Source of the DNA: an uncultured candidatus Porisulfidus sp.
GTDB lineage: Bacteria > Pseudomonadota > Gammaproteobacteria > Poriferisulfidales > Poriferisulfidaceae
Direction of reading: 5' to 3'
Assembly: GCA_965204575.1 (NCBI GenBank)
Contig: OZ241993.1
Location: 1,216,001-1,280,000, forward strand
DNA: 64,000 nt
The position numbers and the translations under genes were made by a program. Positions 25,222 through 46,628 of this stretch are shown piece after piece; the stretch's first letter is position 1, and the number at the start of each line of letters is the position of its first letter. The notes under the pieces are model-generated. The model worked only from the letters and a program-made list of their open reading frames with translations. It was not told where the DNA came from and made no database searches.

Positions 25222-25521
25222 TCAGCCGAGCAGCACGCCGATGAAGAAGGTGGTCAGGTAGATGACGATCAGGCCCAGCATGGAAAGCAGGCACAACAGG
25301 GTCACCAGGTGATGCGGGCGTCGGTGACCGACCAGGACGCCGGCAACCGCGACGGCGAACGAGGCCAATCCCAAGCTTTGCATGCAGCCCGTCTGGCAGC
25401 TGCGTGCCTCGAAAGGCCCTCCCAGCATGTTGAAGACCAATGCCACGGTCAGGCTCCAACTGACGGCCGTGGCCAGCACGGTCCAGGGCGAGATGGCGGT
25501 GTAGTAGCGGGAGGCGATCAT
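25222..25521 (-). CDS. Hypothetical membrane protein (99 aa, about 3 TM, CQTGC loop)
   Basis: Hydrophobic ORF filling the gap, co-oriented with the upstream DUF1640-like gene. Confidence 0.6.
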   Translation of the reverse strand: MIASRYYTAISPWTVLATAVSWSLTVALVFNMLGGPFEARSCQTGCMQSLGLASFAVAVAGVLVGHRRPHHLVTLLCLLSMLGLIVIYLTTFFIGVLLG

Positions 25522-25539
25522 GCAGTCATTCTATAACTT

Positions 25540-25923
25540 TCACGAGGGCGAGAAGACCCCCAAGAGGCTGGCCGCGACACCGATGACGAGCGGAATATAC
25601 CAGTAAAGCTTCTTGAATTCGGCCTGCATGTCGGAGCGCAGATCCTTGATTTCGCCCTGCAGGCGAAGTTCCATCTTGCCCATATCCACCCGTATGCCAG
25701 ACTCCATCTTCTGCATATCGGTCCGTATGCCGGATTCCATCTTCTTCATATCGGCCCGTATGCTGGACTCCATTTCCTCCATATCGGTCCGCAGGACATA
25801 TTCCATTTTTTCCATGTCGCTTTTCGTGGCCAAGTGGCGCTGGGCGTCATCAATGGCCTCAACCATGGCTCCGGCCTGATCTTCGCTGAAAGTAGCAGCT
25901 TGCAGAGACTTCATGACCCTGAG
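25540..25923 (-). pseudogene. DUF1640/CCDC90-like coiled-coil membrane protein, 3' part, interrupted by the IS
   Basis: LQAATFSEDQAGAMVEAI...LATKSD, 11-aa coiled-coil repeats and a C-terminal TM; removing the IS rejoins it in frame to PHFDK at 27322-27336. Confidence 0.8.
25670..25819. repeat. 33-bp tandem repeat, about 4.5 copies (11-aa unit MxKMESGIRxD)
   Basis: Units such as TCCATCTTCTGCATATCGGTCCGTATGCCGGAT start at 25670, 25703, 25736, 25769 and 25802. Confidence 0.9.
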
Positions 25924-26012
25924 TGATGGGATGGTTCGCCCCACTTCCTAAATCAGCCTTGGGCGGACACAATGAGGTTACCACTAACCATTGCGAAAGC
26001 AGGACGAACCCT

Positions 26013-27059
26013 ATGAAAGCTACTATACCTGACTCCCGGATCGCTTATTTGGGCATTGATCTGGCCAAGCATGTCTTTTACGCGTGCGGCATGACCGAGG
26101 CGGGCCGGGTGGTGCTGGAGAAGCGATTTACGCGCGCCCGACTGGAAAGGTTTACGGAGCAGTTGCCGCCGTGCCGGGTCGGGCTGGAGGCCTGCGGCAG
26201 CGCGCACCACTGGGCGCGCCGGCTGATCGGGCAAGGGCACGATGCCCGGCTGATCTCGCCGCACTTCGTCGCGCCCTTCGTGAAGTCGAACAAGAATGAT
26301 GCGCGGGACGCGGAGGCGATCTGCGAGGCGGTCAGCCGGCCGACGATGCGCTTCGTCCCGGTGCGGTCGGAGTCGGAACAGGCGATCCAGCACTGGCACC
26401 GGGCGCGGCAGCGGGTGGTGCGGAGCCGCACCCGCCTGGTCAACCAGTTGCGGGCGTTCCTGTACGAATACGGACAGGTACTCCCGCAGGGCGTCAAGGC
26501 GTTCCGGCGTCGGGTTCCGGAGCTTCTGGAAGACGGCGAGAACGGCCTGCTGCCGGAGGTTCGCGAGATGTTGGCGGACGGTTACGAGGAGTTGCTGGGG
26601 CTGGATGCGCGGGAGGAGCAATACCGCGCCCGGATCCAGGTGCATGCGGCTTCAGAGGAAGCCTGCGAGCGGCTGATGGCGATCCCGGGAGTCGGGGTGC
26701 TATGCGCCAGCGCTCTGGTCATGAAGTTCCGGGACGGGGGCGACTTCCGAAACGGTCGAGAGGCGGCGGCCAGTGTCGGCCTGGTGCCGCGGCAGCACAG
26801 TACGGGCGGACAGGTCCGGCTGGGCGGCATCAGCAAGCGGGGAGACCGGTATCTGCGCACTCTGATGATCCAAGGTGCCAGCTCGGTCGTGCGGCTGGCG
26901 GAACGGAAAGAGGACGGCCGCAGCCGTTGGGCCTCTGACGTGAAGCGGCGTCGCCATCGCAATATCGCGGTGGTGGCACTGGCCAACAAGAACATCCGCA
27001 TCGCCTGGGCTCTGCTCAGGAGCGGCGAAGCTTATCGGGAGGAAGTCTCTATGGCCTGA
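26013..27059 (+). CDS. IS110-family DEDD transposase/recombinase
   Basis: LGIDLAK, GLEACG and KNDARDA (DEDD); IPGVG; GLVPRQHSTGG (catalytic Ser region); GDRYLR; AGGA SD at 26001. Confidence 0.96.
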   Translation: MKATIPDSRIAYLGIDLAKHVFYACGMTEAGRVVLEKRFTRARLERFTEQLPPCRVGLEACGSAHHWARRLIGQGHDARLISPHFVAPFVKSNKNDARDAEAICEAVSRPTMRFVPVRSESEQAIQHWHRARQRVVRSRTRLVNQLRAFLYEYGQVLPQGVKAFRRRVPELLEDGENGLLPEVREMLADGYEELLGLDAREEQYRARIQVHAASEEACERLMAIPGVGVLCASALVMKFRDGGDFRNGREAAASVGLVPRQHSTGGQVRLGGISKRGDRYLRTLMIQGASSVVRLAERKEDGRSRWASDVKRRRHRNIAVVALANKNIRIAWALLRSGEAYREEVSMA

Positions 27060-27093
27060 GGCTTCCCCCTGAATCCCGGCGGCCACTGGCTGC

Positions 27094-27275
27094 CGATCGG
27101 TTGCAGGGAAGAAGCAGAACATGGCGAAACAGGTCGGACCGACGCGTCGGGAACCTGGTTGATAAACAGGCCTTCGAGGTCATCTCAGTGATGAGGCCGG
27201 CGCGTGCGGAACCCATGGGGGCCCGGGAGCTACGTTCTCCCGTCAAGAGGCCGGATATATGTTCGCACCCGATCG
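27094..27275 (+). ncRNA. Putative bridge RNA/seekRNA of the IS1111-group element
   Basis: Enclosing stem 27094-27104/27265-27275; stem 27142-27150/27197-27205 flanks segments matching the target; a second loop holds segments matching the element junction (see findings). Confidence 0.75.
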
Positions 27276-27321
27276 ATCGTCAAGGATGCTTCCCACTTGC
27301 AGGGAGGGGGCGAACCATATA

Positions 27322-27352
27322 TTTATCAAAATGTGGGGTATGAGGCGCCTCC
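27322..27352 (-). pseudogene. 5' fragment of the DUF1640-like gene (SD plus TPHFDK codons)
   Basis: Minus strand reads GGAGG-cgcctc-AT-ACC CCA CAT TTT GAT AAA, in frame with LRVMK across the IS. Confidence 0.6.
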
Positions 27353-27503
27353 GGTCTGTTCGCGCCGGGGGTGGCAACGGGCTCTTGAGTGCTGGATTTC
27401 AAGGACGTCTCTCCTTGACGAATAGATAGTGGGAGGAATTGCCCTGTTGAGAACATTCCTCGGGTTGGGAGGGATGGTCCAGAAGAAAGTTGGAAAGGCA
27501 AGG

Positions 27504-27556
27504 AAAAATGGTCTGAATTTTTAGACCATTTTTACTTATTGAAAATCAATAGGTTA
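27504..27556. promoter_or_regulatory. Operator-like inverted repeat and IHF-consensus site in an AT-rich divergent intergenic region
   Basis: AAAAATGGTCT-N8-AGACCATTTTT (27504-27533); AATCAATAGGTTA (27544-27556) fits WATCAANNNNTTR. Confidence 0.45.
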
Positions 27557-27710
27557 TGGATCGTTCCGGATACCGCTCTCGGTCAAATTTGTTCAAATTT
27601 TCAACATTGTCATGGATGCGGGCATGGAGGGAGTTCCGGCCTTTGGCACTGTCATGTTCGCTTCCGACAGTCGCGGGGTATGATGGGCGAAAGAGGAGAA
27701 ATTACGTCAC

Positions 27711-28121
27711 GTGTTCCGTTCCGCAATCGAAGCCGAAGACGCTTTCTACGAAGCATTCGCCCAGCAGGACGTCGAGGCCATGATGCAGGTGTGGGCGGAG
27801 GGCCGCCCGGTTTTCTGCATTCACCCAGGAGGTGATCTGCTGACCGGCCGGGAGGAAGTGGAGGAGAGCTGGAAACAGATCTTTGGGGCAGAGGTGCCAT
27901 TCCATTTCGAGCTGGAATACCACTATCGCGAGGAATTCGACGGGCAATTCGCCATCAGCCAGTTAACGGAAACCCTGTACCTGCGCCACCATGTCGTCGG
28001 CATCGTGCTGGCGACCAACGTCTATTGCGGCACGGACGAAGGCTGGCGAATGATCATGCACCATGCTTCGCCGCCGCCCGGTCCGGACGCACCGGAGTCC
28101 GGGGTGCCCGTCCTGCACTAA
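27711..28121 (+). CDS. NTF2/SnoaL-like family protein
   Basis: AFYEAF...DVEAMMQVW, CIHPG, ATNVY and WRMIMHHAS motifs. Confidence 0.85.
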   Translation: MFRSAIEAEDAFYEAFAQQDVEAMMQVWAEGRPVFCIHPGGDLLTGREEVEESWKQIFGAEVPFHFELEYHYREEFDGQFAISQLTETLYLRHHVVGIVLATNVYCGTDEGWRMIMHHASPPPGPDAPESGVPVLH

Positions 28122-45369: not shown

Positions 45370-46628
45370 ACGGAGAAAGGCAGCAGTTTCTTCGGTACCG
45401 CGATGTTTTTCAGGGTCGCATATTCCGGCAATCCGCCCTTGAACGGGGGAGGGCTCTCGCCCCGGACCAGTGGCGCCAGGTAGGTCCGGCATCGGCCGGT
45501 GATGCGGAAACCGTTGCGGCTGATGTAGCTGCGCGGCATCTTCCGTTCGCGGTTGGCCACCCGGGACAGGGCGACCTGCCCGATCTTCCAGCGGTACGGC
45601 CTGTTGGAGGTGCGCACGATGGTGGGCATGATCGCGGTTTGTCCGGCCAAGGCGAATCGGACCGCGGCGCGGCCGACCGCATAGGCCTGCCTCAGGTCGG
45701 TCTTCGAGGCGATGTGACGGGCTGAGCGCTGCAGGTAATCGGCCACGGCCCAGTGGTACTTGTAGCCCAGTTTCTCCTTGACCATCTGCGCGAGGATCAC
45801 GGCGTTCCCGCCGAGCTGCGCATGGCCGAACACGTCCCGGGTGCCGGCTTCGGCCAGGAACTTCCCGTCCTTGGTGCGCACGCCTTCGGAGGCGACGATG
45901 GCGCAATACCCGAAACGCTTGACGCAATGGTCGACCCGGGCCAGAAAGACTTCGGGGTTGAACGGGATCTCCGGAAACAGGATCAGGTGCGGAGGCTCGG
46001 AGGGAGATCGCGAGGCCAGGCCGCCGGCCGCGGCGATCCAACCCGCGTGACGCCCCATCACCTCCAGGATGAAGACCTTGGTCGACGTAGCCGCCATGCA
46101 GGCGACGTCCAGTCCTGCTTCACGGATCGAAGTGGCCACGTACTTCGCGACCGAGCCGAACCCCGGGCAGTTGTCGGTGACCGGCAGGTCGTTGTCGACG
46201 GTCTTCGGGATGCCGATGCAGCGGATGGGGTAGCCGAGCCGGTCGGCGAGCTGGGAGACCTTCCACGCGGTGTCCTGCGAGTCCCCGCCGCCGTTGTAGA
46301 AGAAGTAGCCGATGTCGTGCGCGCTGAACACCTCGATCAGGCGTTCGTACTGGGCCTGGTTCTCCTCCAGTCCCTTGAGCTTGTAGCGGCAGGAGCCGAA
46401 TGCGGCGCCGGGGGTGTGGCGCAGTGCGGCGATGGTGCGGGCGGTTTCGCGGTGGGTGTCGATCAGATCCTCGGTCAGTGCGCCGAGGATGCCGTTGCGC
46501 CCGGCATAGACCCGGCCGATGCGCGAGCGGTTCGCCCGGGCCGTCTCGATCACGCCGCAGGCCGAGGCGTTGATGACCGAGGTCGGCCCGCCGGACTGGG
46601 CATAGAAGGCGTTGCGGCGCGTGGTCAC
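45366..46628 (-). CDS. pfp: Phosphofructokinase, probably PPi-dependent
   Basis: AQSGG, GGGDS (Asp typical of PPi users), PKTVDND and EVMGR motifs; GTG start at 46628. Confidence 0.88.
   Translation of the reverse strand: MTTRRNAFYAQSGGPTSVINASACGVIETARANRSRIGRVYAGRNGILGALTEDLIDTHRETARTIAALRHTPGAAFGSCRYKLKGLEENQAQYERLIEVFSAHDIGYFFYNGGGDSQDTAWKVSQLADRLGYPIRCIGIPKTVDNDLPVTDNCPGFGSVAKYVATSIREAGLDVACMAATSTKVFILEVMGRHAGWIAAAGGLASRSPSEPPHLILFPEIPFNPEVFLARVDHCVKRFGYCAIVASEGVRTKDGKFLAEAGTRDVFGHAQLGGNAVILAQMVKEKLGYKYHWAVADYLQRSARHIASKTDLRQAYAVGRAAVRFALAGQTAIMPTIVRTSNRPYRWKIGQVALSRVANRERKMPRSYISRNGFRITGRCRTYLAPLVRGESPPPFKGGLPEYATLKNIAVPKKLLPFSV

Follow-up and report, generated by a model that had tools for sequence, protein, structure and literature searches.

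Does the long non-coding tail of an insertion sequence (IS) from an uncultured candidatus Porisulfidus sp. encode an RNA that tells the element's recombinase where to insert and which ends to join? The IS lies in a window of 64,000 nt, which is the whole stretch of DNA that was analysed (GCA_965204575.1, OZ241993.1 positions 1,216,001-1,280,000, forward; coordinates below count from the first base of the window). An earlier note, made from the letters of this window, had read in the tail a guide with two loops, one of them matching the insertion site and the other the joined ends of the element itself. We propose that the 3' region encodes a predicted bridge RNA (seekRNA), whose target- and donor-binding loops would serve a DEDD recombinase, and we put the probability of this reading at about 0.9. 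The features on which it depends are collected in Table 1.

Table 1. Coordinates of the element, its gene, the predicted RNA and the adjoining sequence (window positions)
Feature	Position	Strand	Remarks
CCDC90-like gene (PF07798)	25540-25914	-	context only; ATG 9 nt from the element's left end
Left half of target	25919-25923	+	CTGAG here, CTCAG at second copy; compared with target-loop 3' guide
Whole insertion sequence	25924-27321	+	1398 bp; identical second copy and exact empty sites in three congeners
Left terminal extension TGATGGG	25924-25930	+	first T is the core base; ATGGG complements donor-loop 5' guide
Left subterminal inverted repeat ATGGTTCGCCCC	25931-25942	+	12 bp
Transposase/recombinase gene	26013-27059	+	348 aa and stop; DEDD RuvC-like domain and Transposase_20
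Basal stem, 5' strand	27108-27137	+	approximate limits; bears both loop arms
Target-binding arm (predicted)	27142-27205	+	stem 27142-27149/27198-27205, 3-bp stem 27154-27156/27194-27196, internal loop, hairpin 27169-27181
Target-loop 5' guide TTGATAAAC	27159-27167	+	complements top strand G-T-TTATCAA (last left-flank base, core, seven right-flank bases)
Target-loop 3' guide CTCAGT	27184-27189	+	same sense as left flank and core, so pairs with bottom strand
Donor-binding arm (predicted)	27206-27266	+	stem 27206-27208/27264-27266, internal loop, distal hairpin 27220-27252
Donor-loop 5' guide CCCAT	27212-27216	+	complements ATGGG of left end
Donor-loop 3' guide ATATATG	27255-27261	+	same sense: right repeat's last two bases, 3-nt extension, core T, one further base
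Basal stem, 3' strand	27269-27298	+	approximate limits
-35-like hexamer TTGCAG (3/6)	27297-27302	+	17 nt before a -10-like hexamer formed only on end joining
Right subterminal inverted repeat GGGGCGAACCAT	27307-27318	+	12 bp
Right terminal extension ATA	27319-27321	+	
Right half of target TTTATCAAA	27322-27330	+	first T is the alternative core-base placement

Limits, insertion site and group of the element

The limits of the IS were set from its two copies and from sites that lack it. A second copy in the same genome (L002:1506-2903) was 100% identical, and the identity spanned window positions 25919-27333. When the flanks of the two copies were aligned, identity beyond the element was confined to the target, the same 13-nt site in each case: the window copy has CCTGAG to its left and TTTATCAAAATG to its right, and the second copy ACTCAG and TTTATCAAATTG. 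The empty site that had been predicted by removing the IS was found exactly in three congeneric genomes (L088, L089 and L090), in which CCTGAG runs directly into TTTATCAAAATG. As the flanks abut to the base in all three, with no duplicated bases, insertion did not duplicate the target. The limits can also be written as 25925-27322, one T being common to element and target.

Within these limits, the left one of two 12-bp inverted repeats begins after the first 7 nt, and the right one stops 3 nt short of the end. Repeats of like type were present in 66 of 80 homologue loci (the best 80 of at least 566 relatives, found by scanning one genome per species). The IS has 262 nt of non-coding sequence downstream of the transposase gene (27060-27321) compared to 89 nt upstream (25924-26012), and the putative RNA falls within the downstream part, where it had been placed by the earlier note.

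The two identical copies argue for recent movement of an element that appears intact and recently active. No free target site was found in the window's own genome at up to one mismatch; both sites are occupied. Contigs from four sequencing runs over 25800-27450 broke at 25922 and 27330, and their loose ends were the flanks of the second copy. Neither the circle junction nor the empty-site joint was present in the contigs of these four runs, which is uninformative on excision, as contigs drop rare variants.

Each copy sits just upstream of an oppositely oriented gene, 9-10 nt from its ATG (window 25914-25923; L002:1493-1505); the gene encodes a CCDC90-like protein beside the window copy and a Bax1-I family protein beside the second. 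The insertions should separate these two genes from their upstream regions. Within the CCDC90-like gene (25620-25830, minus strand), an internal repeat is suggested by the matches of the left-flank query to relatives, which came as overlapping pieces offset from each other; the translation has repeated motifs of the form ...MEKME... and ...MKKMES....

The transposase matched DEDD_Tnp_IS110 (PF01548, E 2.5e-19) over profile positions 1-153 of 155 and, in its C-terminal part, Transposase_20 (PF02371, E 2.1e-20). It scored 338.8 bits against the NCBIfam model NF033542, 'IS110 family RNA-guided transposase', for which the cut-off is 140. Residues D16, E59, D96 and D99 were invariant across 12 aligned relatives. 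The same 12 proteins share the motif GLxPxxxS[T/S]G (GLVPRQHSTG in the window protein), with G256, L257, P259 and G265 invariant and T or S at position 264; the IS1111 motif has been worded as GL-P----S(t)G (PMC11187229, section 6). The annotated transposases of IS4321 and IS5075 were 41% identical to the window protein over residues 10-341 (95% of its length). A sequence search against solved structures returned two chains only, from IS621 and ISCro4. These align over the C-terminal domain alone, and an argument from structure was dropped for this reason.

Traits given for the IS1111 group include subterminal inverted repeats of 7-17 bp, short extensions and a longer non-coding region downstream (PMC11187229, PMC11208160). 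The window element has both protein domains, the repeats, the downstream non-coding region, site-specific insertion free of duplication and a full-length relationship to IS1111-group transposases. Its features thus place it in the IS110 family, IS1111 group, and the identity suggested by the earlier note was borne out by the domains, the NCBIfam score, the IS4321/IS5075 match and the subterminal repeats.

Predicted fold of the 3' RNA and proposed reading of the target

A consensus fold was built from the 8 closest relatives among the best 80 (67-71% protein identity). The 3' region of these relatives is near-invariant save for two short hypervariable segments, which flank a conserved GGCC-TTCG-GGCC hairpin. 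The fold comprises a long basal stem with two arms, each built from a stem that leads through an internal loop to a distal hairpin. Each side of the two internal loops is formed by one of the four guide segments, none of which is paired in the consensus; the possibility that they might lie in paired stems had been named as a point against the claim. The guide segments that had been quoted (TTGATAAAC, CTCAGT, CCCAT and ATATATG) were all found in place, as were the hairpins GGCCT/AGGTC (27169-27181) and CGGGAG/CTCCCG (27224-27242). A stem said to enclose the first loop (27142-27150/27197-27205) is also present, one pair shorter in the 8-relative fold than had been drawn.

A covariance model of the 131-nt RNA core, R1, gave 88 matches at E <=1 over 84 sources (the window, L002-L004 and the best 80 homologue loci). 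Full-size matches made up 82 of the 88, all of them at E <=7e-5, and some loci had more than one match. R1 covered its full length in most of the best 80 related loci, and it also matched IS4321 (58.3 bits, full length) and a Klebsiella plasmid element (L096, 50.7 bits). The predicted window RNA is homologous to the 3' RNA of IS4321. In the R1 alignment, which was itself fitted to the model, 93.9% of cells were paired, compared to 73.3% after shuffling and 32-37% when partner columns were slid against each other, and both sides had changed in a compensatory manner in 26 of 30 base pairs. For the basal stem, the 30 nt before and the 30 nt after the core had a mean of -17.8 kcal/mol as own pairs compared to -11.9 kcal/mol as mismatched pairs, and 0 of 5000 permutations reached the own-pair value.

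These data bear on whether the region acts as RNA at all. It overlaps the right end of the element and could act as DNA, for example through transposase-binding sites, in which case the variable segments would be target sequence that has been copied into the element. However, changes on both sides of base pairs, and the destruction of pairing by sliding partner columns, are the signature of a folded single strand. In addition, the strand and order of the matches (see below) are those of IS1111-group seekRNAs that were purified experimentally (PMC11187229, section 9). We consider a role as DNA very unlikely.

A scan of 25500-27800 against Rfam 15 (E <=1) found no family that matches the element RNA. 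The sole match was to a microRNA model (E 0.21, 27471-27567), outside the element and at chance level; this intergenic stretch, to the right of the IS, holds a strong AT-rich hairpin. A weak R1 match elsewhere in the window (46519-46595, minus strand, 20 bits, E 0.042) was treated as noise.

The same genome carries a second, different IS110-family element in two copies (contig C1, ~713-715 kb and 24-25 kb; L003-L006), parts of its transposase gene being ~70% identical at the DNA level. R1 matched its 3' RNA (L003, L004) at 60 bits, with A in the core column of its loops. Some relatives are rearranged. At L013:2300-3406, the 3' part of the element with the whole RNA is tandemly repeated at a spacing of 648 nt, so that the RNA, but not the transposase gene, is present twice. 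At L065:2722-3110, three tandem units of 129-131 nt hold the donor arm and the right end. In L016:1090-2823, R1 matched once on each strand and there is an inverted repeat of 156 nt, an arrangement that looks like a head-to-head pair of copies.

What does the first loop read? Its 5' guide complements the top strand across the join, and 3' of this lies the segment that matches the left flank, as had been noticed from the single element; the join would thus be read on both strands. Together, CTCAGT and the complement of GTTTATCAA spell the 13-nt site CTCAGTTTATCAA. The site of the second copy is exactly the one spelled by the guides, and CTCAGT matched it at 6/6 positions; at the window site the match was 5/6 (CTGAG compared to CTCAG), in agreement with the figure given before.

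A lone 9-nt match in one element is not decisive, as its chance in a 262-nt region compared with a short target is a few per cent (~0.04, a rough estimate). We therefore rely on the family for this point. Flank analyses used the loci anchored on subterminal repeats, namely the 66 homologue loci and the twin copy L002, which represented the identical window copy. In the other 14 of the 80 loci the repeat search found no ATGG-type subterminal repeat, and they were left out (L017, L021, L022, L029, L032, L033, L041, L044, L050, L058, L060, L062, L069 and L072). L081, with a partial RNA, was excluded from later counts, and the flanks of L009 and L057 were not long enough to enter the permutation test.

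For 48 distinct guide pairs, we summed the longest matches of the two segments to the element's own target; the mean was 12.6, compared to 7.48 +/- 0.23 when guides and targets were permuted, and 0 of 20000 permutations reached the observed value; the loci share phylogeny and the alignment (A5) was fitted to the model, so these statistics overstate independence. The longest match of the reverse-complemented 5' segment averaged 6.6 nt with its own target and 3.8 nt with others, and that of the 3' segment 6.0 nt and 3.5 nt, respectively. It is this family-wide permutation that places the match between guides and targets beyond chance. The guides track their own flanks in homologues, a covariation that had been put forward as a check on the original claim. 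Close relatives (L007-L014) have a conserved scaffold, differing loop segments and correspondingly differing flanks. Some loci fitted poorly: L010 was offset by one base per side, and L013, L014, L016 and L036 had weak 5'-guide matches.

The permutation result also stands against chance matches in a GC-rich non-coding tail, a reading to which the rough estimate for a single match lends something. Alternatively, the tail could be coding, since an ORF of 80 aa (27101-27343) spans it. However, this ORF leaves the element and runs into the flank, and the variation takes the form of hypervariable loops between invariant or compensating stems, not of a codon pattern. The coding reading was rejected on these grounds, and chance or coding together can scarcely be credited.

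The predicted donor loop and the core base

The second loop had been described as matching the element's own junction. Its segments match the right end with the core and the left end, and they covary with these ends in homologues. The donor-loop 3' guide agreed with the right end and core at 6/6 positions in 62 of 66 loci (of the best 80), and these guides cover five variants (ATATAT, ATACAT, ATATAA, ATATAC and ATGTAC). Two further right-end variants are the extension AGA in IS4321 and CTA in the Klebsiella plasmid element. In 55 of these 66 loci the donor-loop 5' guide fitted the left end at its three variable bases, with four states represented, and 5 of the 11 misses were compatible with a G-U pair. 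In the window element this 5' match is only 5 nt long (CCCAT/ATGGG) and the next position is G; the closest relatives among the best 80 (L009-L014) have a C at that position, which would extend the pairing.

Is the second arm a guide? The target arm might guide alone, as a short seekRNA, with the protein recognising the ends through the subterminal repeats. The second arm would then be a scaffold or processing element, and its similarity to the ends would be incidental or serve another purpose. An 82-nt short seekRNA was indeed enough for movement of a mini-IS in ISEc11, for which the sections concerned describe target matches only (PMC11187229, sections 9, 10), and the short 5' match of the window element fits such a view. 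Against it, the second-arm segments covary with the extensions and the core in the loci counted above, and also in IS4321 and L096. Because they track changes in the ends, incidental similarity is disfavoured. Donor-binding nucleotides have moreover been reported in predicted IS1111 bridge RNAs (Durrant et al., PMC11208160, section 12). Guidance by the target arm alone thus seems improbable to us, and we retain the reading with two guiding loops. Given the short seekRNA of ISEc11, the donor arm may not be strictly required in the IS1111 group.

In 65 of 66 loci the two junctions have an identical core base, and in the window element it is the single shared T that had been proposed as the core. 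It also agreed with the core column of the 3' guide, both in the target loop (65 of 66 loci) and in the donor loop (64 of 66). Agreement at all four places was found in 63 loci, with T in 52, A in 6 and C in 5. At the right end, A precedes the core in 65 of 66 loci; the left-flank base varied. As the neighbouring bases differ, donor and target visibly share no more than this one base. By analogy with IS621, the mechanistic core could be a dinucleotide with one tolerant position. L014 was the sole locus of the 66 in which the right-junction base (A) differed from the left (T); this junction and the one-base offset of L010 may be off-target insertions or later mutations.

Past the core, both 3' guides continue into sequence that the recombination would bring together. 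In the target loop of the window element, GATG (27190-27193), directly after the 3' guide, equals the first left-end bases past the core. Among the homologues, the target-loop bases +2 and +3 past the core were left-end bases in 58 of 66 and 51 of 66 loci, respectively. In the donor loop, the base after the core agreed with the first right-flank base in 55 of 66 loci; counted over 52 distinct elements, it did so in 44 and agreed with the first left-end base in only 11. When this donor-loop base was permuted within variants, 39.0 +/- 1.1 matches were obtained compared to the 44 observed, a value reached in 20 of 20000 permutations. These counts suggest that both 3' guides run on into the product in a handshake-like manner, the signal being partly phylogenetic.

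Joining of the ends would also create a promoter-like site. Its -10-like hexamer (5/6) draws two bases from the right end of the element and the other four from the left end, and the -35/-10 arrangement at the junction is conserved in relatives. Junction promoters have been described for this IS family (PMC12288879). A scan of 25800-27450 for sigma-70-like promoters and intrinsic terminators found none.

A model, and its place among known systems

We propose the following model. The predicted RNA would be ~130 nt long (27138-27268), or ~190 nt with the basal stem. Its first arm would read the target, CTCAG-T-TTATCAA, on both strands, the 5' guide pairing with the top strand of core and right flank and the 3' guide with the bottom strand of left flank and core. 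The second arm would read the joined ends of the excised circle in like manner, its 5' guide pairing with ATGGG of the left end and its 3' guide with the bottom strand of right end and core. The RNA-bound DEDD/Ser-Thr recombinase would bring the circle junction to the target, and strand exchange at the shared core base would lead to insertion without target duplication. Production of the RNA, its binding by the recombinase, formation of the circle and expression from the junction promoter would proceed as in published relatives, from which we take these steps.

How does this compare with known systems? The nearest are IS4321 and IS5075, IS1111-group elements of enterobacterial plasmids, which are alike in having 12-bp repeats set 7 and 3 nt in, a single shared core T and a 3' RNA. 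In the one copy of IS4321 that we examined, the loops match the element's own flanks and ends likewise (10-nt top-strand match, extension AGA, left end ATGAG). Targets and guides differ between IS4321 and the window element, as do the extensions (TAATGAG/AGA compared to TGATGGG/ATA). The hosts also differ, the window host having a small GC-rich genome with sponge-associated MAGs as its nearest relatives.

The seekRNAs of ISEc11, ISPa11 and ISKpn4 (Siddiquee et al. 2024, PMC11187229) likewise come from the region downstream of tnp. In them, as here, the top-strand match comes first (5') and the bottom-strand match second, with an overlap at the insertion point. Relatives of the IS1111-group seekRNAs have been re-targeted naturally by replacement of loop segments (PMC11187229), like L007-L014 in our set. 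The RNAs of ISEc11, ISPa11 and ISKpn4 were purified with their transposases and reprogrammed experimentally (PMC11187229), whereas the window RNA is a prediction from sequence. PMC11187229 describes target matches; its sections 6, 9, 10 and 13 contain no account of donor-arm covariation.

IS621 (Durrant et al. 2024, PMC11208160; Hiraizumi et al. 2024, PMC11208158) also has target and donor internal loops that read both strands around a core. It resembles the window element further in its product-matching ('handshake') bases beside the guides and in a DEDD RuvC-like domain combined with a nucleophile-bearing Tnp domain (PMC11208160, PMC11208158). In contrast, IS621 carries its RNA in the left end, upstream of the gene, with the strand matches in the opposite order (PMC11208160, PMC11208158). 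Its core is a CT dinucleotide (PMC11208160, PMC11208158), with one strict and one tolerant base (PMC11208158), compared to the one base visibly shared in the window element. As described, IS621 is without long subterminal repeats, and its protein is similar to the window protein in the C-terminal domain only (E 4e-5).

ISPpu9, with its small RNA Ssr9, is an IS110-family element that also has a small-RNA gene downstream of the transposase gene, and extra RNA-only copies of it occur (PMC12288879). The RNA-bearing partial duplications in L013 and L065 recall these RNA-only copies. As described in PMC12288879, ISPpu9 differs from the window element in belonging to the IS110 group, in having no subterminal repeats, in recombining at an AG dinucleotide and in having no junction promoter.

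Some details of the IS4321-like clade appear to differ from IS621: a freely variable single core base that is set four times, an A before the core at the right end that has no match in the target, and 3' guides that match the product. Tentatively, these may be undescribed, a proposal that could well prove wrong. If it holds, the clade would provide natural rules for a compact recombinase of 348 aa whose core requirement is relaxed.

As the mechanism class has been in print since 2024 and IS4321 has a homologous RNA, the finding extends a known class and does not change it. Only the family-wide rule set, with its single covarying core base and product-matching extensions, might go beyond the systems described. 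The element itself can be annotated precisely, with its ends, guides and 13-nt target, and it offers a natural example of predicted RNA-guided recombination in a small symbiont-type genome. For the family, the 48 distinct guide pairs constitute a natural reprogramming series for IS1111-type bridge RNAs.
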